From contig JBBIIG010000005.1 of NCBI GenBank assembly GCA_037446635.1, positions 32,001 through 96,000 of the forward strand: a stretch of DNA of 64,000 nt, given 5' to 3'. The notes under the pieces were generated by a model. That model was not told the DNA's origin and did no database searches. It was given only the letters and a program-made list of their open reading frames with translations. Both the position numbers and the translations under genes were made by a program. Positions within the stretch are counted from its first letter, which is position 1. Every line of letters starts with the position of its first letter. The stretch comes from a bacterium (GTDB taxonomy: Bacteria; Zhuqueibacterota; Zhuqueibacteria; Oceanimicrobiales; Oceanimicrobiaceae). Positions 2,976 to 38,742 of the stretch are shown one piece after another.

Positions 2976-3124
2976 AAGTTCCCTCCTTTGGAAAAGGAGG
3001 GACAGGGAGGATTGGTTTTTGTAGGATGGTCGTACTAATGAATCCCCCTTCCGCGAAGCCTGCCTGCGCAGGCAGGCGGATCCGCTTTGGCGGAAAATCC
3101 CCCTCTTTCAAAGGGGGACTTTTA
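2976..3124. repeat. Composite CCCCT/AGGGG hairpin element with two nested mini-palindromes
   Basis: TCCCTCCTTT-GG-AAAAGGAGGGA left arm; right arm AATCCCCCT[TCCGCGAAG[CCTGCCTGCGCAGGCAGG]CGGATCCGCTTTGGCGGA]AAATCCCCCTCTTTCAAAGGGGGACTTT. Confidence 0.85.
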
Positions 3125-6971: not shown

Positions 6972-7289
6972 TGCCAGGCACCTTCAAGGTGCCTGGCACT
7001 TCAGTGATACAGGCAGGCGAATCCCGACGCTTTTCCGCGAAGCGGATCGGCTCTGCCGATTGTCGGGTGAGGAATCTGACGAAGAATGGATCGCAGAGAT
7101 TAAATGAGAACTGAGCGATTCGCCAAGTCTATTCTCCGACAGATTCCTCGACTCCGCTGCGCTCCGCTCGGAACGACGCGTTGAATCGAATGTTCGAACA
7201 TCGAACAAGGAACTTTTGAATTTCGAACATGCAAAAAGCTGACAGCTGAACTTAAAAAGTGCCAGGCACCTTCGAGGTGCCTGGCACTT
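6972..7289. repeat. Composite repeat: two GTGCCAGGCACCT hairpins enclosing a nested GTCAT-type element and heptamer repeats
   Basis: TGCCAGGCACCT-TCA-AGGTGCCTGGCA (6972-6998) and AAGTGCCAGGCACCT-TCG-AGGTGCCTGGCACTT (7257-7289); 7010-7085 matches the reverse complement of 9346-9421 at 75/76 nt. Confidence 0.85.
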
Positions 7290-7303: not shown

Positions 7304-9145
7304 ATGAAAAAGCTAATCAAAACCTCGTTCCGCCTCATCATCAGCGCCTCGCTGATAGTCTTTCTCGTGAGCAAAACCAATCTCACGGAAATCTGGCAAT
7401 CTGCGAAGTCCGCGGACGCGCTGCTGATTGCGCTGGCGTTCCTGCTGCACGGCATCGGCTATTTTTCAAGCTCATGGCGCTGGCAAATTCTCCTCCGCGC
7501 GCAGGGCTTCGACGTGCCCGTGATGTACCTCGTGCGCTCGTACGCCGTGGCCATGTTCTTCAACAACCTGCTGCCGTCCACCATCGGCGGCGACGGCTAC
7601 CGCGCGTACGACACCGCCAAGTGCAACATCCCGCCGCTGAAAGCGCTGGCCAGCGTCATCGTCGAGCGCTTCCTCGGCATGTTCGGGCTGATGATTTTCG
7701 CGGTGGTGGCGCTGGCGGTCGCTACCGAGCTCACTACACAAATCGAAAACATCTGGATGTGGTCGCTGCTGACGTTCGGCCTGATGATCGCCGCCGTGTA
7801 CCTGATTTTCTTTCACAGCGGCAAAGTGCCGTGGCTGCGTCGCATTTTGAATCTCCCCGGCCTGGCGATGGTCAACAAGCAGCTTATGAAAATCACCGAG
7901 TCGTTTGCACCGTTCCGCGGCAAAACCCGCGCGCTCACGTGGTCGATGGTTCTGTCGCTGGTGCTGCAATTCAACGTGATTCTGCATTACTACCTGATTT
8001 CCGAAGCCCTCGGCCTGCACATCCCGCTGGTGAAATTTCTGGTGATCATCCCGCTCGCCACGTTCGTGCAGATGGCGCCGGTCTCCATCAACGGCATCGG
8101 CATTCGCGAATCGTTCTACGTTTTCTTTCTCTCAAAAATTTACGGCGCGCCCATTGCCGCCAGTCTGGCGTTCTCGTGGATCGCCTACGGCATGGTGGTG
8201 CTGCTCGGCGTGCTCGGCGGAATCATTTATATGTTTCGCAAAGACGCGGCGCCCGCGTCGATTACTTCAGACTCATTGAAAACCGCTCCCGACGCGTCGG
8301 GACAGGAGGCAACTATGGCTAACAACAATCGGCAAAGCCGATCCGCTCAGGCGGACAAGCATCAAATCATGGACACGCAGAAGGATTTGTTCGACGCGAA
8401 AAAGTCGAAGTCCAAAAAGTATCAGGAAATTTTCATTGGCGAGCCCGGCCTGTGGAAGATGATCAAGTACGAACTCGTCACCACGTTTTTTAGCTGGGTG
8501 CCGGGCGCGTTCGGGATTTTGCTGCGTTCGATTTTTTACCCGATGATTTTGGGAAAGGTGGGGCGCGGCGTGGCGTTCGGCGCCAACGTCGCCATCCGCC
8601 ATCCCGGTAAAATTTGCATCGGCGACAATGTGGTGATTGACGACAACTGCGTGCTCGACGCCAAAGGCCAGAGCAACACCGGCATCACTATTGGCAATGG
8701 CGTGTTCATTGGCCGCGGCACGATTCTGACCTGCCACAACGGCGACATCATTTTGGAAGACAACGTCAACATCGGCTTCAACTGCGTGATTTCCTCGCTC
8801 AGCAAAATCGTCATCAAGAAGAATCATTTGATGGCGGCGTTCTGCTATCTCGTCGGCGGCGATCACGACAGCGACCGCACCGACATTCCCGTGCTGTTTC
8901 AGGGCCGCTCCTCGAAAGGCATTACCATCGAAGAGAATGTTTGGCTTGGCGCCGCGGTGGCCGTGCTCGATGGCACCACCGTTGGCCGCGACAGCATCAT
9001 TGGCGCGCACGCGGTGGTGAACAAAAATGTGCCCGAGTTTGCCATTGCCGCCGGCGTGCCCGCGAAGTTTTTGTGGGATCGGCGGAAGGGGAAGGAACAT
9101 AATGAGATTTTAAAGGGAGAGAATGTTGCGCAGCCGGCTAAGTAG
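7304..9145 (+). CDS. Fused ORF: lysylphosphatidylglycerol-synthase-TM (flippase-like) membrane domain + hexapeptide-repeat acyltransferase; the latter has its own RBS and ATG at 8315
   Basis: SWRWQILL, FFNNLLPSTIGGD.YR, PVSINGIGIRE in the N-half; left-handed beta-helix repeats (IGDNVVIDDN, IEENVWLGA, GVPAK) in the C-half; AGGAGG at 8304-8309. Confidence 0.85.
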   Translation: MKKLIKTSFRLIISASLIVFLVSKTNLTEIWQSAKSADALLIALAFLLHGIGYFSSSWRWQILLRAQGFDVPVMYLVRSYAVAMFFNNLLPSTIGGDGYRAYDTAKCNIPPLKALASVIVERFLGMFGLMIFAVVALAVATELTTQIENIWMWSLLTFGLMIAAVYLIFFHSGKVPWLRRILNLPGLAMVNKQLMKITESFAPFRGKTRALTWSMVLSLVLQFNVILHYYLISEALGLHIPLVKFLVIIPLATFVQMAPVSINGIGIRESFYVFFLSKIYGAPIAASLAFSWIAYGMVVLLGVLGGIIYMFRKDAAPASITSDSLKTAPDASGQEATMANNNRQSRSAQADKHQIMDTQKDLFDAKKSKSKKYQEIFIGEPGLWKMIKYELVTTFFSWVPGAFGILLRSIFYPMILGKVGRGVAFGANVAIRHPGKICIGDNVVIDDNCVLDAKGQSNTGITIGNGVFIGRGTILTCHNGDIILEDNVNIGFNCVISSLSKIVIKKNHLMAAFCYLVGGDHDSDRTDIPVLFQGRSSKGITIEENVWLGAAVAVLDGTTVGRDSIIGAHAVVNKNVPEFAIAAGVPAKFLWDRRKGKEHNEILKGENVAQPAK

Positions 9146-9162: not shown

Positions 9163-9440
9163 TGTCATTCCCGCATGCTTTTAGCGGGAATCCATTTGAC
9201 GAGAATGCTGGATGCCCGATTGAAGCATTCGGGCATGACAACGAAAATTATCGAATTGTCATTTCGAAGCTGAGCGCAGCGAAGTGAGAAATCTGACGGA
9301 GAATAGATGTCGCGAATCTGGTCGGAGTTAATTTGAAAGATCGGCTCTTCGCCAGATTCCTCACCCGACAATCGGCAGAGCCGATCCGCTTCGCGGAAAA
9401 GCGTCGGGATTCGCCTGCCTGCCGCAGGTAGGGAATGACA
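9163..9440. repeat. Two tandem GTCAT...ATGAC palindromic elements, the second with nested mini-palindromes
   Basis: TGTCATTCCCGC..GCGGGAATCCA/TGGATGCCCG..CGGGCATGACA (9163-9240); TGTCATTTCG..GAGAAATCTG/CAGATTCCTC..GAATGACA (9257-9440). Confidence 0.85.
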
Positions 9441-9780: not shown

Positions 9781-11721
9781 ATGATTTTCGGCATCACCCA
9801 TCACGATAAAAATCGACACGTCAACAAAGAAGCATTTTTGAATCTCGTACCGGCGCGGTTGGCGGGCAAAGCCGTTAGCAGTTTCATTCAGCAAAATATC
9901 GCGCTGGGAGCTTCGGAGATGAACGTCCCCACGATCGATGACGGCGTGGGACTCGCGTTCAGCGCGGATAAGAAAATCGTGGTGGCGGCATCGGGTAATA
10001 TTTTCGCCGCTGCTGAGTTTGCCGGAAGCAAAAATGAACCCGTCGCGCAAACCATTTTGCGGGCGTATCAGTCCGCGGGTGAAAACGGCTTCAAACATCT
10101 TAACGGACAATTTGCTGCCGCCATCTGGGATTCGACGCAAAACAAATTTCTGCTGGTGCGCGATCACCTCGGCTTCGAGCCACTGTTCTACTACTGGGAT
10201 GGCCAGACCCTCATCTTCAATTCGTTTCTCAGAGATTTGATTCGCCACGAGAATGTGCGCCGCGATTTCAATCATCGCGCCATCCGCAATTACCTGTTGT
10301 TCAATTACAATCCCGGCCTCGAGACGTTTATTCAGAATGTGCGAAAGGTGCGGCCGGGGCACGTGCTGGTTTTGGAGAATGGGAAGGTGGAGGAGAGGAG
10401 GTATTGGAGGCTTTCATACAATACCAGCGGCAACACCCCCCCTAGCCCCCCCTCAAGGGGGGGAATGGAAGTGGGTTCGAAGGGGGGAACTCTAGAAGAT
10501 TACAAAGCGGAGCTACTGCGGCTGACGCGCGACGCCATTCGCATCCGCACGCAGGAGACGGCGTCCGACCCCGGCGCGTTCCTCAGCGGCGGCATGGATT
10601 CCAGCTCGGTGGTGGGACTGCTGAGCGGACTCACCGAGCGGCCCATCCACACTTTTTCCTTTCGCTGCGAGGGCAAGTACGTGGACGAGTCCTACTACGC
10701 GCGAGTGATGGCTAACCATTACAAAACTCGCCATAACGAAATTCCGTTCACCGCCGACGAGCTGCTCAACTTTGAAAAAATGGCCGAGTGGATGGATGAG
10801 CCGCTGTGCGACATCGGCGTGGAGCTGGGGTCGTTCATCATGGGGCGCGCGGCGCAGGGCCATGTTCAGTACATCCTCACCGGCGATGGCGGCGACGAGC
10901 TGTACGCCGGCCACCCGGTGTATCTCGCCGATCAAATGGCCGCGGCGTTCGACAAAATTCCGGCGCCGCTGCGCGCGGGCGTGCTTGGCATCGCGGGGCT
11001 ACTGCCGGATTCCGATAAAAAGAAAAGTCTGTTGGTGAAAGCGCGGCGCTTCGCGTATAGCTACGGTTTCCCCGCGGAGCTGCTGAGCAATCGCTGGCGC
11101 ATTTATTACACCGGCGCGGAGCTGGCGCGTCTTTGCACTCCGGAGGTGGTGCAGCAATTCGGCGATCTCGACTCGTACCGCGATATCACCGATTTGTACG
11201 CCGACGCCGACGGCCCCGACCATCTCAGTCGCGCGCTTTATGGCGATTATCAGACGCTGGTGCATTTCCACGTTGACCGCCTGCGGCTGACCCGCGCATG
11301 GGGCATCGAGGCGCGCTTCCCGCTGCACGATTACCGGCTCGTCGAGTTTTCGGCGACCATTCCGTCGGCGCTGAAGATTCGCCCGCCTGCCTCAGGCCTC
11401 TGGCGGGCAGGCAACTCGCAGGTGAAATACATTCAGCACGAAGCGCTGGCCGGCGTGCTGCCCGATGAAATCGTTTTTCGCAAAAATAAAATGGGTCACA
11501 ATGTGCCGATGAAAAACTGGATGCGGGAAACTACCGTGTTCCGCGATTTGATGAACGACGTACTCTCCGAAACTGCGGTGAAGCGGCGCGGCATGTTCAA
11601 CGCGCCGTTCGTGAAACAGATGCTGGATCTCCATCTCCGAAAGAAAAAGGACTACTCCCATCGCCTCTACGCCCTCGTGATTTTGGAACTCTGGCTCAAG
11701 AAAAACATCGATAATCGATGA
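9781..11721 (+). CDS. Asparagine synthase-related protein lacking the N-terminal Cys; carries two in-frame palindrome insertions
   Basis: LNGQFA, RDHLGFEPLFY, LSGGMDSS, TGDGGDELYAG, EARFP; begins MIFGIT. Confidence 0.9.
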   Translation: MIFGITHHDKNRHVNKEAFLNLVPARLAGKAVSSFIQQNIALGASEMNVPTIDDGVGLAFSADKKIVVAASGNIFAAAEFAGSKNEPVAQTILRAYQSAGENGFKHLNGQFAAAIWDSTQNKFLLVRDHLGFEPLFYYWDGQTLIFNSFLRDLIRHENVRRDFNHRAIRNYLLFNYNPGLETFIQNVRKVRPGHVLVLENGKVEERRYWRLSYNTSGNTPPSPPSRGGMEVGSKGGTLEDYKAELLRLTRDAIRIRTQETASDPGAFLSGGMDSSSVVGLLSGLTERPIHTFSFRCEGKYVDESYYARVMANHYKTRHNEIPFTADELLNFEKMAEWMDEPLCDIGVELGSFIMGRAAQGHVQYILTGDGGDELYAGHPVYLADQMAAAFDKIPAPLRAGVLGIAGLLPDSDKKKSLLVKARRFAYSYGFPAELLSNRWRIYYTGAELARLCTPEVVQQFGDLDSYRDITDLYADADGPDHLSRALYGDYQTLVHFHVDRLRLTRAWGIEARFPLHDYRLVEFSATIPSALKIRPPASGLWRAGNSQVKYIQHEALAGVLPDEIVFRKNKMGHNVPMKNWMRETTVFRDLMNDVLSETAVKRRGMFNAPFVKQMLDLHLRKKKDYSHRLYALVILELWLKKNIDNR

Positions 11722-12663: not shown

Positions 12664-12685
12664 CGAGTGCTGATGTTTAGGATGT

Positions 12686-13049
12686 GGATTAATGGATTGT
12701 TGGATCAATGGATCAATGTAACAAAGATGTCATTCCGAACCTCGATGCTTTTTATCGGGGTGAGGAATCTGGCGGAGAGCGAAACGTGATATTGCGAAGG
12801 TACTTTGAAAAACGGCAACTCATCCCTCGTGTTCGCTGGGGATTTAAGCCCGCGTGCTCGGCCCGCCAAGGAATCTCCAGCAGAATTAATGGCTGTGGAA
12901 TTATATTCCATGCAGTTGAAGGAGATAAAATCTCAGGCTCATTTATTCCGCGTGGGATTACGTGGAAAAAACGGCGCGGAGCGACAAATCCCACGCGAGC
13001 CGGCGGGCCTTTTCATTGATCCATTAATCCATCAATCCAACGATCCATT
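12686..13049. repeat. TGGATCAA/TTGATCCA octamer inverted arms enclosing a half GTCAT element and a decayed gene fragment
   Basis: TGGATTAATGGATTGTTGGATCAATGGATCAATG (12686-12718) vs CATTGATCCATTAATCCATCAATCCAACGATCCA (13014-13049); GTCATTCCGAAC..GAGGAATCTGG at 12729. Confidence 0.8.
12790..13012 (-). pseudogene. Possible decayed Y1 HUH (IS200/RAYT-like) transposase fragment
   Basis: Translation FFHVIPRGINEPEIL..AWNIIPQPLILLEIP loosely resembles HVxxRGxN..AxxxMPNHxHLLLExP; HUH motif not intact. Confidence 0.3.
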
Positions 13050-13083
13050 TACATTAACTCGGATCAGAATAACAAATTAGATT

Positions 13084-13728: not shown

Positions 13729-13802
13729 AGGTTGTCATTGCCTGCCTGTCCGCAGAAGCGGATCCGCCTCGCGGACGCGGGCAGGCGAGTCGAAGCAATC
13801 TC
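13684..13802. repeat. GTCA(C/T)TGCG-type element pair with doubly nested mini-palindromes; inverted relative of 20328-20424
   Basis: GGGACTGCTTCGCAAAAAGCGCCTCGCAGTGAC..GTCATTG[CCTGCCTG[TCCGCAGAAGCGGATCCGCCTCGCGGA]CGCGGGCAGG]CGAGTCGAAGCAATCTC. Confidence 0.85.
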
Positions 13803-25992: not shown

Positions 25993-28148
25993 AAGCACTG
26001 GTAACCGGCGCGGCCGGATTTTTGGGACGCCACATTGTTGAAGTTTTACAGAAGCACAAGTATGAAATCGTGACCGTGGTGCGTCCCACGAGCGATGTGA
26101 GTTTTCTCAGAGAAAGAAACGTGCGCATGATTGACGGCGATCTGCGCGATCCCAAAGTTCTCGCAAAAGCCGCCAAAGGTGTGGATGTGATCGTGCACGC
26201 CGCGGCGGCGCTGCGCGGCAGGTGGGAGGATTTCAACGAAATCAACGTCGAGGCGACGCGCCATTTGCTGGAGATAGCACTTCAAGAAAAGGTACAGCGA
26301 TTCGTTTTCATCAGCTCGATCATCGTTTACGATCACACCTCGGCGAAGGCGGGACACACCTTTCGCGAGGACATGCCCTACGAGGAGAAGCAGCAGACGT
26401 TTTACTGCAAAACAAAAATCGCGGGGGAGAAGCTGGTACAGCAGTATCACGAAAAAGGTTTGGCGACGACCATCATTCGCCCCGGCGCGCTCTATGGCAA
26501 GCACGGTCCGATGTTCATGTCGCGACTCGGCATGCCCCTCGGCAGCAATCGTTATCTGATTGTTGGCAACGGAAAATTGCCGTTGCCACTTTCGCACGTG
26601 GAAACGGTGGCCGAAGCGGTCTGGCTGGCGATTTCAAAAAAGGAAGCAATCGGTCAAATTTACAACGCCGTCGAAAGCGATACCCTCACGCAGCGTGAAT
26701 TTTTCGCGCAAGTTCGCCAGCATGTGAAACCGAAATTTTCCACCATTCGTGTACCGCTGCCGGTGATGAACTTCATGGCGATTTGTCTCGACAAATTATT
26801 GGGACTGGCGAAAATGAAATCGCCACTGAGTTTGTCGCAGATCCGACTTTGGGCCACGCCGTTTTTTTATTCAAATGAAAAAATCAGAACAGAGCTCAAC
26901 TGGCAGCCGGCAGATGTTCCCGCCACCGTGCGCGATATGCTTATTTGGAATAAGCAGAAAACACAGCCGAAGCGGAATCCGCCGGGCAACAAAATTAACG
27001 TTGCGATCAATTCCGACAAACAAGTTCGCGTCGGTGTAATTGGATGCGGCGTGATCTCCGGTCCGCATCTCGCTGCGCTGAGTCGCATCAAAAACGCTGT
27101 GGTCGCAGCCGTGAGCGATCCCGTTGAAACCGCGCGCGAAACAATGGCGAAAAAGTACAGCGTCATGAAATCGTATTCCAATTACAAAGAGATGCTGGAA
27201 AACGAAAAGCTGGACGCAGTGCACGTGTGCACGCCATCGCAGAGTCATGCCGAGATCAGCATCGCGGCGATGAATTGCGGCTGCCACGTGTTTGTGGAAA
27301 AACCGTTCGCGCTGACTGCCGCTGAAGCCAAGCGCATGTTGGCCTCTGCGAAAAAGAACAACGTGCTGCTCTGCGTCGATCACAATCACCTCTTCGACGA
27401 AGTGATGGTGAAAGCGCGCGCGATCATCGCCAGCGGCGCACTTGGTCGCGTCTCGTACGTGGAAAGCTGGTACGGCACCTCGTACAGTTCTGACGCCGGC
27501 AGCCGCTACCTGACGTGGGAGGGCCGCAACAACTGGGCGTACAACATGCCCGGCTCGCTTTATCAAAATTTCATCTCCCATCCCATCGCGCTCTTGTTGG
27601 ATGTGATGGGCGACGCGCGCGTGCACGGCGTGCAGGGGAAATTCAATCGCATCGTTCCCCACATGAAAACCGACGAGCTGCGGGTGATGCTCGAAAACGA
27701 AACCATGCTCGGCCTGCTCAGCATGTCGATGGCGGTTTCGCCGCGCTATTTGTTCGTGAATGTTTATGGCACCGCCGCCACGCTGAAGATCGATTTCCTC
27801 AACAAGTACGTTTTTCTCGACAAGCCCGCCGCGAAGCTGCCGCGCGTGGTGAGCCGCAGTCTCAGCGCCATGAAACAGGCGCGCATCATTTTTAGCTCGG
27901 GAATGAAAAACACGGTGCTCGGTTTGCTCGGAAAATACAACATGTATCAGGGCAATGAGACGCTCATTCGGCTATTTTACAAAAGCATCCTCGATGGCGA
28001 TCCGCTGCCCATCGCGCCGGAGGAAGGAGTACGCTCGATGGAAGTGATGGATGAGATTTGGACGAAGCTCGCCACCAGCAATGGCGCGTCTTCGTTAGCC
28101 AAAGTGCCGGTGAAGGGCAAGAAAACTTCGATGACCAAAGAGGATTAA
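25989..28148 (+). CDS. Bifunctional NAD-dependent epimerase (SDR) / Gfo-Idh-MocA oxidoreductase
   Basis: TGAAGFLG and YCKTK in the N-half; GVIGCG, HVFVEKP and DHNHLF in the C-half; TTG start after AAGGAG. Confidence 0.88.
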   Translation: MKALVTGAAGFLGRHIVEVLQKHKYEIVTVVRPTSDVSFLRERNVRMIDGDLRDPKVLAKAAKGVDVIVHAAAALRGRWEDFNEINVEATRHLLEIALQEKVQRFVFISSIIVYDHTSAKAGHTFREDMPYEEKQQTFYCKTKIAGEKLVQQYHEKGLATTIIRPGALYGKHGPMFMSRLGMPLGSNRYLIVGNGKLPLPLSHVETVAEAVWLAISKKEAIGQIYNAVESDTLTQREFFAQVRQHVKPKFSTIRVPLPVMNFMAICLDKLLGLAKMKSPLSLSQIRLWATPFFYSNEKIRTELNWQPADVPATVRDMLIWNKQKTQPKRNPPGNKINVAINSDKQVRVGVIGCGVISGPHLAALSRIKNAVVAAVSDPVETARETMAKKYSVMKSYSNYKEMLENEKLDAVHVCTPSQSHAEISIAAMNCGCHVFVEKPFALTAAEAKRMLASAKKNNVLLCVDHNHLFDEVMVKARAIIASGALGRVSYVESWYGTSYSSDAGSRYLTWEGRNNWAYNMPGSLYQNFISHPIALLLDVMGDARVHGVQGKFNRIVPHMKTDELRVMLENETMLGLLSMSMAVSPRYLFVNVYGTAATLKIDFLNKYVFLDKPAAKLPRVVSRSLSAMKQARIIFSSGMKNTVLGLLGKYNMYQGNETLIRLFYKSILDGDPLPIAPEEGVRSMEVMDEIWTKLATSNGASSLAKVPVKGKKTSMTKED

Positions 28149-28212
28149 TGGATCAATGGATTATTGGATCATTGTTTTTCATTAATCCATTGATCCAACA
28201 ATCCATTAATCC
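28143..28212. repeat. TGGATCAA/TTGATCCA octamer inverted arms
   Basis: GATTAATGGATCAATGGATTATTGGATCA / TTAATCCATTGATCCAACAATCCATTAATCC. Confidence 0.8.
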
Positions 28213-28280
28213 TCGTTCCAAAAGCAGGATCATAATGAAAAGAACTCTCGTTCGAATTACTCCGTCGGTTGGGTGAAGAC

Positions 28281-35670: not shown

Positions 35671-35887
35671 TGGAGTAATGGAGCTTGGAGTGGTGGAGTA
35701 ATGGATTGATGGATCAATGGATCAATGAAATGAAAATGCAAAGGGCAGATTTCAAAATTCAAAATTTGGTTTCACGTCTCACGTCTCACAGTTCACGTTC
35801 CAAAACTCCATCACTCCATCGCCCCGTCGCTATGCGCCATGCACATTCATCCATTGATCCAGTAATCCATTAATCCATTAATCCAAC
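35671..35887. repeat. Concentric stack of octamer/heptamer inverted arms
   Basis: TGGAGTAATGG..TGGATTGATGGATCAATGG ... TCACGTCTCACGTCTCAC ... ACTCCATCACTCCA ... TCCATTGATCCAGTAATCCATTAATCCA. Confidence 0.8.
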
Positions 35888-35903
35888 CAGAAAGAGGGAG
35901 GCC

Positions 35904-37337: not shown

Positions 37338-37654
37338 TGCAGACCGCACGGCGCATAGTGCACAGCGCATAGTGCATAGCGCAGAGTGTAAAAGCGCAAT
37401 CCAGAAATTCAATGATACTTTGATTACGTTTAATCAGCTCTAGCGAATTGTCATTCCGAATCCCGACGCTTTTCCGCAAAGCGGATCGGCTCCGCCGATT
37501 GCCGGGTGAGGAATCTGGCGGCGCACGGAAACGTCATTACACACAATCCGTTTTGAGCGAATCGCTGAATTCATTCTGCGTCGGATTTCTCGACTCCGCG
37601 GCGCTAGCAAATGACAATTATTTCGATCTGCGTTAATCTGCGTCATCTGCGTCT
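37337..37654. repeat. GCGCATA heptamers, nested GTCAT element (37449-37616) and ATCTGCGT arm
   Basis: GCGCATAGTGCACAGCGCATAGTGCATAGCGCA; GTCATTCCGAATCCCGACGCTTT[TCCGCAAAGCGGATCGGCTCCGCCGA]TTGCCGGG; ATCTGCGTTAATCTGCGTCATCTGCGT. Confidence 0.8.
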
Positions 37655-37665
37655 GAAGGAGGGAA

Positions 37666-38742
37666 ATGTTAGCCAAACTAATTTTAGAAGACGGCTCCGT
37701 ATTTCACGGTGAGGCGTTCGGCAGTCCGACCTCCGTTGCCGGCGAAGTGATTTTCAACACCGGCATGGTAGGGTATCCGGAGTCGTTCACCGACCCGTCG
37801 TACGCGGGGCAGATCCTGATTTTGACCTATCCTTTGATCGGCAACTACGGCGTGCCGTGCCCCCTGCCTGCGCAGGCAGGCGAAAATAATCTTGACATTC
37901 TGAAAACCGACTTCGAGTCCGAGCGCATTCACATTGCGGGACTGGTGGTGTCGGAATACTCGCGCGATTTCAGCCACTGGAGCGGCCACTCCAACCTCGA
38001 CGCGTGGCTGAAGGCCAATCACATTCCCGCCATCAGCGGCCTCGACACCCGTTTGCTCACGCAGAAACTGCGCGAGCGCGGCAGCATGTTGGGCAAGATT
38101 GTGGTGCACGAAAAGGATTTGCCGTTTTACGACCCCAATCTCGAAAACTTGGTGGCGCGCGTGGCGCAGAAAAAGTCGGCGGAATACGGCACAGGCAAGA
38201 AACGTGTGCTGCTCATCGACTGCGGCTGCAAGTACAACATCGTGCGCTCGCTGCTGCGGCGCAATGTCGCGGTGCGCACGGTGCCGTGGGACTGGGACAT
38301 CTCCAAAGAGCAGTACGACGGCATCGTCATCTCCAACGGGCCGGGCGATCCGAAAACGGTGGCGGCCACGGTGCGCAGGGTTCGCGAGGCGTATCAGCAG
38401 GACAAGCCGATGTTCGGAATTTGTCTCGGCAGTCAGATCATGGCGCTGGCGGCCGGCGCGGATACCTACAAACTCAAGTACGGACATCACAGTCAGAATC
38501 AGCCGTGCGTGCTGGTGGGCAGCAAACGCTGTTTCATCACCTCGCAAAATCACGGTTACGCCGTAGACGAACGCTCGCTGCCGCCGGACTGGGAGCCGTG
38601 GTTTTTCAACGCTAATGACGGGAGCAACGAGGGCATTCGCCACCGCACGAAGCCGTTCCGCGCGGTGCAGTTTCATCCGGAGGCCTCGCCGGGTCCGCTG
38701 GATACGGGGTTTCTGTTTGATGAATTTGTAGAAAAGCTTTAA
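37666..38742 (+). CDS. carA: Carbamoyl-phosphate synthase small subunit
   Basis: GEVIFNTGMVGYPESFTDPSY, SNGPGDP, GICLG, SQNHGY, QFHPE. Confidence 0.96.
   Translation: MLAKLILEDGSVFHGEAFGSPTSVAGEVIFNTGMVGYPESFTDPSYAGQILILTYPLIGNYGVPCPLPAQAGENNLDILKTDFESERIHIAGLVVSEYSRDFSHWSGHSNLDAWLKANHIPAISGLDTRLLTQKLRERGSMLGKIVVHEKDLPFYDPNLENLVARVAQKKSAEYGTGKKRVLLIDCGCKYNIVRSLLRRNVAVRTVPWDWDISKEQYDGIVISNGPGDPKTVAATVRRVREAYQQDKPMFGICLGSQIMALAAGADTYKLKYGHHSQNQPCVLVGSKRCFITSQNHGYAVDERSLPPDWEPWFFNANDGSNEGIRHRTKPFRAVQFHPEASPGPLDTGFLFDEFVEKL

Follow-up and report, generated by a model that had tools for sequence, protein, structure and literature searches.

An 18-nt palindromic micro-element inserted in carA and at other sites of a KSB1 genome, with a small GIY-YIG nuclease as candidate partner

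Introduction

It has long been an open question how the smallest palindromic repeats (RPE, SDR and those CGTC REPs that lack a dedicated transposase) spread. The small dispersed repeats (SDRs) of cyanobacteria are about 21-27 nt long; they were reportedly described by Elhai et al. in 2008, with SDR5 said to lie in HIP1, and we know of no link between SDRs and a nuclease cassette. According to the accessible part of PMC4390886, they are very small repeat modules whose insertion point within a short target is exactly fixed. Rickettsia palindromic elements (RPEs) are gene-less palindromes that lie in frame in unrelated housekeeping genes, and a mobilising enzyme is not established for them in the available portions of PMC10969869 and PMC3733652. 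In the Ssn system, binding by the nuclease SsnA is restricted to one strand of its hairpin and is most sensitive to the C just past the palindrome, the consensus of the tail being CYRG, and the accessible text of PMC11893778 reports no mobility of the corresponding NTS repeats. Stand-alone Slx1-like GIY-YIG proteins have been predicted to act in repair or restriction; a tRNA-docking cassette or a palindrome is not mentioned in the available part of PMC1564403.

Here, we describe E18, an 18-nt palindrome in a stretch of 64,000 nt of DNA from a KSB1 bacterium (referred to as the window). Like the RPEs, E18 is found in frame in unrelated genes with a recurring peptide. Like the SDRs, from which it differs in sequence and phyla, it is very small and precisely placed at a short target. 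With REP and REPIN sequences, which are linked to RAYT proteins of the IS200/IS605 chemistry, it shares the short strand-specific hairpin and the lack of a target duplication (PMC8266576 and PMC3116915, each as far as accessible). The association of a short hairpin repeat with a GIY-YIG protein of small size and one domain, together with strand specificity and dependence on a C after the palindrome, recalls the Ssn-NTS/SRM pair (PMC11893778, accessible part), and the candidate mover of E18 consists of a minimal GIY-YIG domain like the stand-alone Slx1-like proteins (PMC1564403, available part). E18 works like the RPEs and SDRs, but lacks defining features of the REP-RAYT, SRM, MITE and SDR5 groups.

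Results

E18 and its relatives in the window

E18 folds into a 7-bp stem with a 4-nt loop; its position and those of related elements are given in Table 1. The pattern CCTGCC-N0-30-GGCAGG has three matches in the window compared to 0.11 expected, and none of 100 shuffles got to three. The five copies listed in a preliminary description of this DNA were right in both coordinates and length (18, 18, 19, 30 and 45 nt), and the sequences at 37863-37880 and 3059-3076 are indeed identical. Two copies had to be reinterpreted in part. The relative at 13741-13785 keeps its coordinates, but it is not a single element: a 27-nt element is nested in the centre of E18. The copy at 3059-3076 is intergenic as described, but sits within a copy of that same 27-nt element; its host site is empty at 49 and filled at 4 places genome-wide. 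E18 and the 27-nt element (E27) nest each inside the other, in both directions.

E27 represents a second micro-element family, consisting of 26-28-nt double hairpins with at least 75 copies and the same frame filter as described below for E18. Its junction preference differs, with mostly T or G before and A or C after the element. Inverted arrays of 8-base GGATTAAT-type repeats are present in the window at 12684-13054, 28140-28217 and 35685-35892, and other arrays of this type elsewhere in the genome also take E-family insertions.

Table 1. Positions of E18, related micro-elements and their host genes within the window
Feature	Position	Strand	Remarks
E18, 18-nt palindromic micro-element	37863..37880	.	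in carA at C|CGA, phase 2, about 6 additional residues, reads P-LPAQAG
carA, carbamoyl-phosphate synthase small chain, E18 host gene	37666..38742	+	358-aa ORF
E18, identical copy	3059..3076	.	intergenic, nested at GAAG|CGG within E27
E27, 27-nt double-hairpin element, split by E18 at 3059	3050..3094	.	
19-nt family member	9414..9432	.	intergenic, in end of GTCATT-type (CGTC/SRM-like) repeat
E30, 30-nt family member	11382..11411	-	in frame in asparagine-synthase-family gene, 10 additional residues
asparagine-synthase-family gene, E30 host	9781..11721	+	
45-nt composite	13741..13785	+	E18 with E27 (13749-13775) nested at central G|CG; host GTCATTG|CGAG repeat
26-nt member of sister double-hairpin (E27) family	37473..37498	.	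upstream of carA
27-nt sister element (E27 family)	8329..8355	.	in frame inside gene 7304-9145
further E27-family copies	7034-7059, 9372-9397		

E18 is an inserted element

E18 is a real inserted element, with precise insertion at dozens of sites in the genome. In CarA, the span from GNYG to FES comprises 20 residues in the window protein, compared to 13 (25 proteins), 14 (17) or 15 (2) in 44 homologues; the alignment bears out the earlier expectation that E18 encodes extra residues. In a predicted CarA model (mean pLDDT 91.9), the E18-encoded insert lies in a coil of lower confidence, with block pLDDT values of 74 and 67. E30 corresponds to exactly 10 extra residues relative to nine of 11 asparagine-synthase-family homologues, while the two most distant ones show a 9-residue gap.

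We compared the 16 exact E18 copies of the congener (G001) with this genome. Five of them correspond to single 18-nt gaps in its orthologues and three to split gaps totalling 18 nt, while two are shared insertions and six are uninformative. At the two shared sites, the element is perfectly conserved within flanks that are about 86-88% identical. Fifteen additional congener loci contributed two more clean gaps, resulting in seven clean 18-nt empty sites in all. Furthermore, one repeat site in the genome is empty in 25 instances and filled in 12, by family members of differing length. As had been claimed from the window, no target duplication was found at E18 sites in the orthologue comparison. 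The junction is ambiguous by one base at C-followed sites, because E18 itself begins with C; at T-followed sites the full 18 nt are retained. In this respect the initial view holds: E18 is a minute insertion unit that prefers certain sites and leaves its target unduplicated.

Neither carA nor the asparagine-synthase-family gene was found with the queries used in the congener genome, which is 74% complete, and no base-level empty allele of carA was therefore obtained. No related-strain contig among the matches listed bridges the E18, E19, E30 or 45-nt sites. The 26-nt element at 37473 is missing (26 letters) from one related-strain contig with a depth of about 4.5, seen in two runs that are possibly one data set.

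Single genes with two or three independent in-frame micro-insertions were also observed (G000:C9:78755-82753; G000:C4:12310-14073; G001:C56; G001:C327). One gene of 1333 aa contains an 18-mer, a 30-mer and a 57-nt composite.

The target is linked to the folding strand

CG directly follows all five window copies on one strand, from which a CG target rule had been proposed. This rule did not hold genome-wide: CG is found on one strand for 52 of 92 copies (background 17%), with about 40 expected from a rule that demands only C. What remains is a mild preference, with CG following E18 at 33 of 119 metagenome sites among the matches listed. Of these 119 sites, 87 are followed by C and 115 by a pyrimidine.

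The folding strand was identified from variants with a T.G wobble. On this strand, C is found at position +1 in 36/40, 13/13 and 12/14 copies of three KSB1 genomes, and a purine at +3 in 67/67; the 40 oriented copies, from G067, come from the fetched part of its 97 copies and many lie in repeated hosts. The 46 unique folding-strand contexts have C at +1 in 40, a purine at +3 in 46, G at +2 in 11, G at -1 in 27 and a pyrimidine at -3 in 37 cases, so that the target consensus in KSB1 is YNG|CNR with a strict downstream half. This consensus is linked to the folding strand. E30 is followed by C in 21 of 22 copies. Outside KSB1, C-N-R is found at 46 of the 119 metagenome sites among the matches listed, compared to a background of 22%, and the purine at +3 is weak. 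The sites in the D-loops of tRNA-Asn and tRNA-Lys do not conform to C-N-R on either strand. No excess of hairpins at genic E18 targets was found relative to 330 matched control sites (p=0.42 and 0.65), and no leading/lagging bias was detected (18:18, with 20 copies of weak skew and one unscored).

Genic copies are filtered by frame and phase

Genic E18 persists only where its length is a multiple of three, and the xLPAQAG phase predominates. Copies of 18 nt are genic in 34 and intergenic in 30 cases, as opposed to 0 and 26 for copies of 19 nt (Fisher p=3.6e-7), in agreement with the frame-preserving selection suggested earlier. These calls are based on an uncurated hexamer gene model built for this genome (3616 genes, 84% coding); the share of 34/64 genic 18-nt copies is still below the coding share of 84%. 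In the sister family E27, elements of 27 nt are genic in 19 and intergenic in 36 cases versus 1 and 19 for those of 26 and 28 nt (p=0.016), and the sole genic exception is part of a composite. All 22 E30 copies are 30 nt long, nine of them genic.

E18 contains no stop codon in any of the three reading phases. The xLPAQAG reading (phase 2) is used by 20 of 22 un-nested genic 18-mers, compared to an expected fraction of 0.33-0.46 from target availability (p at most 1.1e-5). The filter for nested copies dropped 12 of the 34 genic copies and is over-inclusive; unfiltered, 26 of all 34 genic 18-nt copies are in phase 2. The other two phases, PACAGR and xCLRRQx, encode Cys and Arg. This distribution suggests selection at the peptide level in favour of the xLPAQAG phase: selection probably removes frameshifting copies as well as most copies in the Cys/Arg phases. 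Taken together, E18 is almost certainly a micro-element that moves, leaves no duplication and is subject to selection on both frame and phase.

Distribution of the E family

The host KSB1 genome (4.64 Mb) contains 37 exact copies of E18. The congener has 16, G056 a single one, and 58 further relatives none. With a looser E-family pattern, 29 of 167 KSB1 genomes match in a patchy manner and 138 do not; five of the matching genomes contain 97, 70, 50, 29 and 11 copies. In Omnitrophota, the phylum of G167, the family is found in 47 of 121 genomes, mostly in a 20-nt form. The exact 18-mer is also present in viral sets (29 stretches) and metagenomes (at least 120 stretches). Variation within the family is concentrated at the centre of the element. 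Of 57 intergenic E-family copies, 37 lie within other repeats, 19 of the 57 in repeats of the SRM/CGTC type, and E18 variants fill the loops of GTAG-type REPs in G067. No description of the E18 sequence, its peptide or tRNA-docking GIY-YIG cassettes was found in the literature searched, which was mostly freely available main text; the supplements of the Ssn and Di Nocera papers could list related repeats.

In three genomes (G234, G393 and G175), the 20-nt form is dominant and 21-nt loop variants are frequent, with one of five sampled 21-mers in a long ORF. Another genome (G237) has 23 matches to the reversed-pattern control, suggesting a family of mirror-image palindromes. A 19-nt family member was observed inside an Rfam-confirmed RNase P RNA gene (L619:1462-1848).

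Y1 genes and longer elements

The lack of a duplication had been taken to fit HUH-type chemistry. The junction geometry is compatible with this idea, but no linked HUH gene was found, and the recurring partner elsewhere is a small GIY-YIG nuclease. A cognate RAYT for E18 was rejected: none of the four Y1 genes of this genome is flanked by E18, and their cognate repeats are unrelated. Among 30 Omnitrophota Y1 loci, one has a relaxed E-family match, which is its own IS200-type end hairpin, and no true family member is found near these genes. Two further candidates were rejected as well, namely that E18 represents the joined ends of a longer autonomous element (153 unpaired half-sites in this genome, but by eye no convincing gene bracketed by the arms) and that it is a MITE (same half-site result, and no target duplication).

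The four RAYT-like Y1 genes (G000:C29:28227, C76:11237, C2:204828 and C35:26467) each have their own repeat family. For the gene on C2, an obvious start is missing from the frame examined, so that it could be defective.

E-family copies beside tRNA-docking GIY-YIG genes

E-family copies occur repeatedly in tRNA halves that have been duplicated, within the D- or T-loop and immediately adjacent to genes for SLX1-like nucleases. At one metagenome locus, the exact 18-mer lies in the D-arm of a tRNA-Leu 5' remnant, 15 nt ahead of the GIY-YIG start codon, and again in a second remnant past the intact tRNA. A viral-set contig carries the 20-nt form in the same remnant/GIY-YIG layout. At a second metagenome locus (L255), the 18-mer is found near a GIY-YIG gene within a presumed RNase P gene, which is below the Rfam gathering score. 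A D-loop-type pattern matched in 18 of 301 Omnitrophota genomes: six combine remnant, 20-mer, GIY-YIG gene and intact tRNA, and in four further ones the match is in a tRNA remnant with no GIY-YIG gene detected. The only copy in G457 and both copies in G322 are located at such a cassette. Remnants matching the tRNA of their respective host have the insert at an identical place in the D-loop.

In a search from the protein side, 24 of 30 genes of the tRNA-docking type have a tRNA within 300 nt. A relaxed E-family match within 250 nt was found for seven of the 30 (5/28 outside the training alignment), compared to 1/30 Y1 genes and 1/30 UPF0213-like GIY-YIG genes, and about 155 kb of distant flanking sequence contained no such match; the UPF0213-like genes are the top Pfam GIY-YIG matches and served only as control.

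In the genome's own cassette (G000:C94:20-400; L143/L183), a GIY-YIG gene of 78 aa comes after an intact tRNA-Ser(TGA). Broken tRNA-Ser copies on two contigs (including G000:C90:12462-12545) carry the same 27-nt double hairpin (E27) in the anticodon, and the two closest KSB1 homologues of the cassette (63% and 61% identity) have 27/28-nt elements together with degenerate CCTG-type, E18-like inserts. No cassette bearing E18 itself was found in this assembly, and three cassette-free tRNA/tmRNA remnants of this genome show no E-type insert in the stretch read.

The core residues Tyr, Tyr, Gly, Arg and Glu are conserved in the cassette nucleases, and structure comparison matches them to SLX1 and UPF0213; no NCBIfam family scored above cut-off for these small proteins. 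In a tree based on 87 columns, with many forks unresolved, the E-linked nucleases group with GIY-YIG elements bounded by inverted repeats, apart from six SRM-flanked proteins (100/99 split) whose Ssn-like label is given by their flanks only. They are scattered in this tree (7 changes) and do not form one clade. Two SRM-flanked Ssn-like genes are present in the genome.

In an unbiased sample from 30 Omnitrophota genomes, 0 of 33 E-family copies lie within 300 nt of a cassette-type nuclease, and just two of 120 metagenome loci among the matches listed have a GIY-YIG gene nearby. The viral sets contain no match to the GIY-YIG protein L235 and none to the tRNA-Leu-type pattern. Co-occurrence with the nuclease in KSB1 is weak (5/7 high-copy versus 51/160 other genomes, p=0.04, kin not being independent). 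The tRNA remnants hold many unrelated palindromes. This accumulation, and the location of 37/57 intergenic copies within repeats of other kinds, suggests that the remnants may simply act as sinks.

Discussion

E18 differs from each of the described systems in defined properties. SDR5 occupies a fixed position of HIP1 (GCGATCGC), whereas the contexts of E18 are diverse and share only the loose consensus YNG|CNR. RPE-1 is about 150 bp long (PMC10969869, available part) compared to 18-30 nt for the E family, sizes being compared by description, and the CGTC tag of RPE-4 and RPE-6 is absent from E18 (PMC10969869 and PMC3733652, as far as accessible). Furthermore, in contrast to the RPEs, one reading phase is selected and the target consensus has been measured for E18. 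Unlike REPs and REPINs, E18 has no GTAG/CGTC foot tetranucleotide; its flanks vary, and the empty sites identify the bare palindrome as the unit. It has no flanking Y1 gene and is a single 18-nt hairpin, whereas a REPIN is a doublet. While REPs are mainly extragenic, 34 of 64 18-nt copies lie in called genes, often in frame. E18 also lacks the SRM consensus with its CGTC leader and instead inserts into such repeats. Intragenic NTS amount to 2% (PMC11893778, accessible part) compared to about half of the 18-nt E copies, and the E-linked nucleases, which are located in tRNA remnants, are separate from the SRM-flanked proteins in the tree.

Our favoured reading, which we put forward tentatively, is that E18 is a gene-less hairpin that owes its mobility to a nuclease acting in trans in combination with host ligation. 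This would be a small SLX1-like GIY-YIG protein that stands alone, one of those with genes settled in tRNA genes. The nuclease would bind the folded strand with its 3' C-N-R tail, much as Ssn nucleases bind their hairpin plus the next C; the CYRG tail of SsnA is a close parallel. It would nick the feet of the stem, thereby freeing the hairpin, and would nick the target 5' of C. The freed hairpin would then be sealed into one strand by a host ligase or by repair, and the insertion would become fixed upon replication. To our knowledge, characterised GIY-YIG enzymes only hydrolyse DNA, and the joining step would therefore need a host enzyme. With somewhat more reserve, we suggest that stand-alone SLX1-like GIY-YIG nucleases may make up a class of selfish cassettes not described before, which would use tRNA genes as docking sites and move many different hairpins of 16-30 nt without transposase or recombinase.

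The absence of a target duplication would also follow if an HUH (Y1, RAYT/IS200-like) transposase moved E18 in trans by strand transfer, with the GIY-YIG cassettes as safe landing places. Every junction on the folding strand (left end, right end and target) reads X|C, which would suit a single cut-and-rejoin enzyme acting via a 5'-phosphotyrosine, and TnpA-REP cleaves ssDNA next to hairpins, at C|T or C|A (PMC8266576, accessible part). The four Y1 genes of the genome and the E18 variants in GTAG-type REP loops of G067 point in the same direction. Nevertheless, we regard such a transposase as unlikely: the cognate repeats of all four Y1 genes are unrelated to E18, no true member lies near 30 Omnitrophota Y1 genes, E18 has no GTAG guide, a lagging-strand bias is absent, and excision of REP singlets was unseen in population sequencing according to the available text of PMC3116915. 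It is also rather doubtful that the mover is another enzyme or a mixture of several, be it an Ssn-type GIY-YIG nuclease, capture of hairpin oligonucleotides by repair or a polymerase writing the palindrome into breaks, so that cassettes and REPs would merely be sinks. Most E-family copies are indeed far from cassettes, a third of the intergenic ones (19/57) lie in SRM/CGTC-type repeats in a genome with two SRM-flanked Ssn-like genes, a dimeric enzyme that cuts double-stranded DNA would likewise be consistent with the loosely palindromic YNG|CNR, and element variation is concentrated at the centre. Against this stand the enrichment of matches beside the tRNA-docking clade, the copy at the cassette in single-copy genomes, the constant D-loop position in remnants matching each host's tRNA, and the three cassette-free remnants without an insert in the stretch read.

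That E18 is not mobile at all, i.e. that the copies are selected or repair-generated features (terminator- or REP-like hairpins, a favoured linker peptide) homogenised by gene conversion, is very improbable. The perfect conservation of the two congener-shared sites within diverged flanks and the dominance of a single peptide phase would be compatible with it, but the exactly empty orthologous sites largely refute it. Identical DNA is found in and between genes, across phyla and in viral contigs; the copies nest in one another and in themselves, and 138 of 167 KSB1 genomes have none.

If mobilisation by the nuclease is true, the 18-mer is among the smallest mobile DNA units known, crosses phyla and writes a selected 6-residue peptide into essential proteins. 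For E18, the target rule has been measured, empty and filled alleles are exactly defined, and a candidate enzyme of about 80 residues can be named; the question of spread thereby becomes testable with oligonucleotides and one purified protein. A nuclease that helps to insert a short hairpin without duplication could also serve as a tool. Moreover, the selection of raw insertions at two levels, frame and peptide phase, represents a natural experiment on tolerated short peptides.

Some GIY-YIG genes have terminal inverted repeats of about 15-17 bp (L140 (G001:C522), L186, L192, L195, L197, L201, L205, L462, L470, L473 and L478). They resemble an insertion sequence, have gene-less palindromic derivatives nearby and cluster inside the tRNA-docking group; their hosts, named by eye, are integron-integrase, sulfatase-modifying-like and four-helix-bundle genes. 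Other GIY-YIG genes lie beside remnants of tRNA-Met, tRNA-Asn and tRNA-Pro (L194, L200, L202, L206, L207, L199, L209 and L136), in which different palindromes of 16-18 nt stand in place of about 10 nt of the tRNA instead of being simply inserted. At L203 and L208, remnant and gene form tandem arrays.
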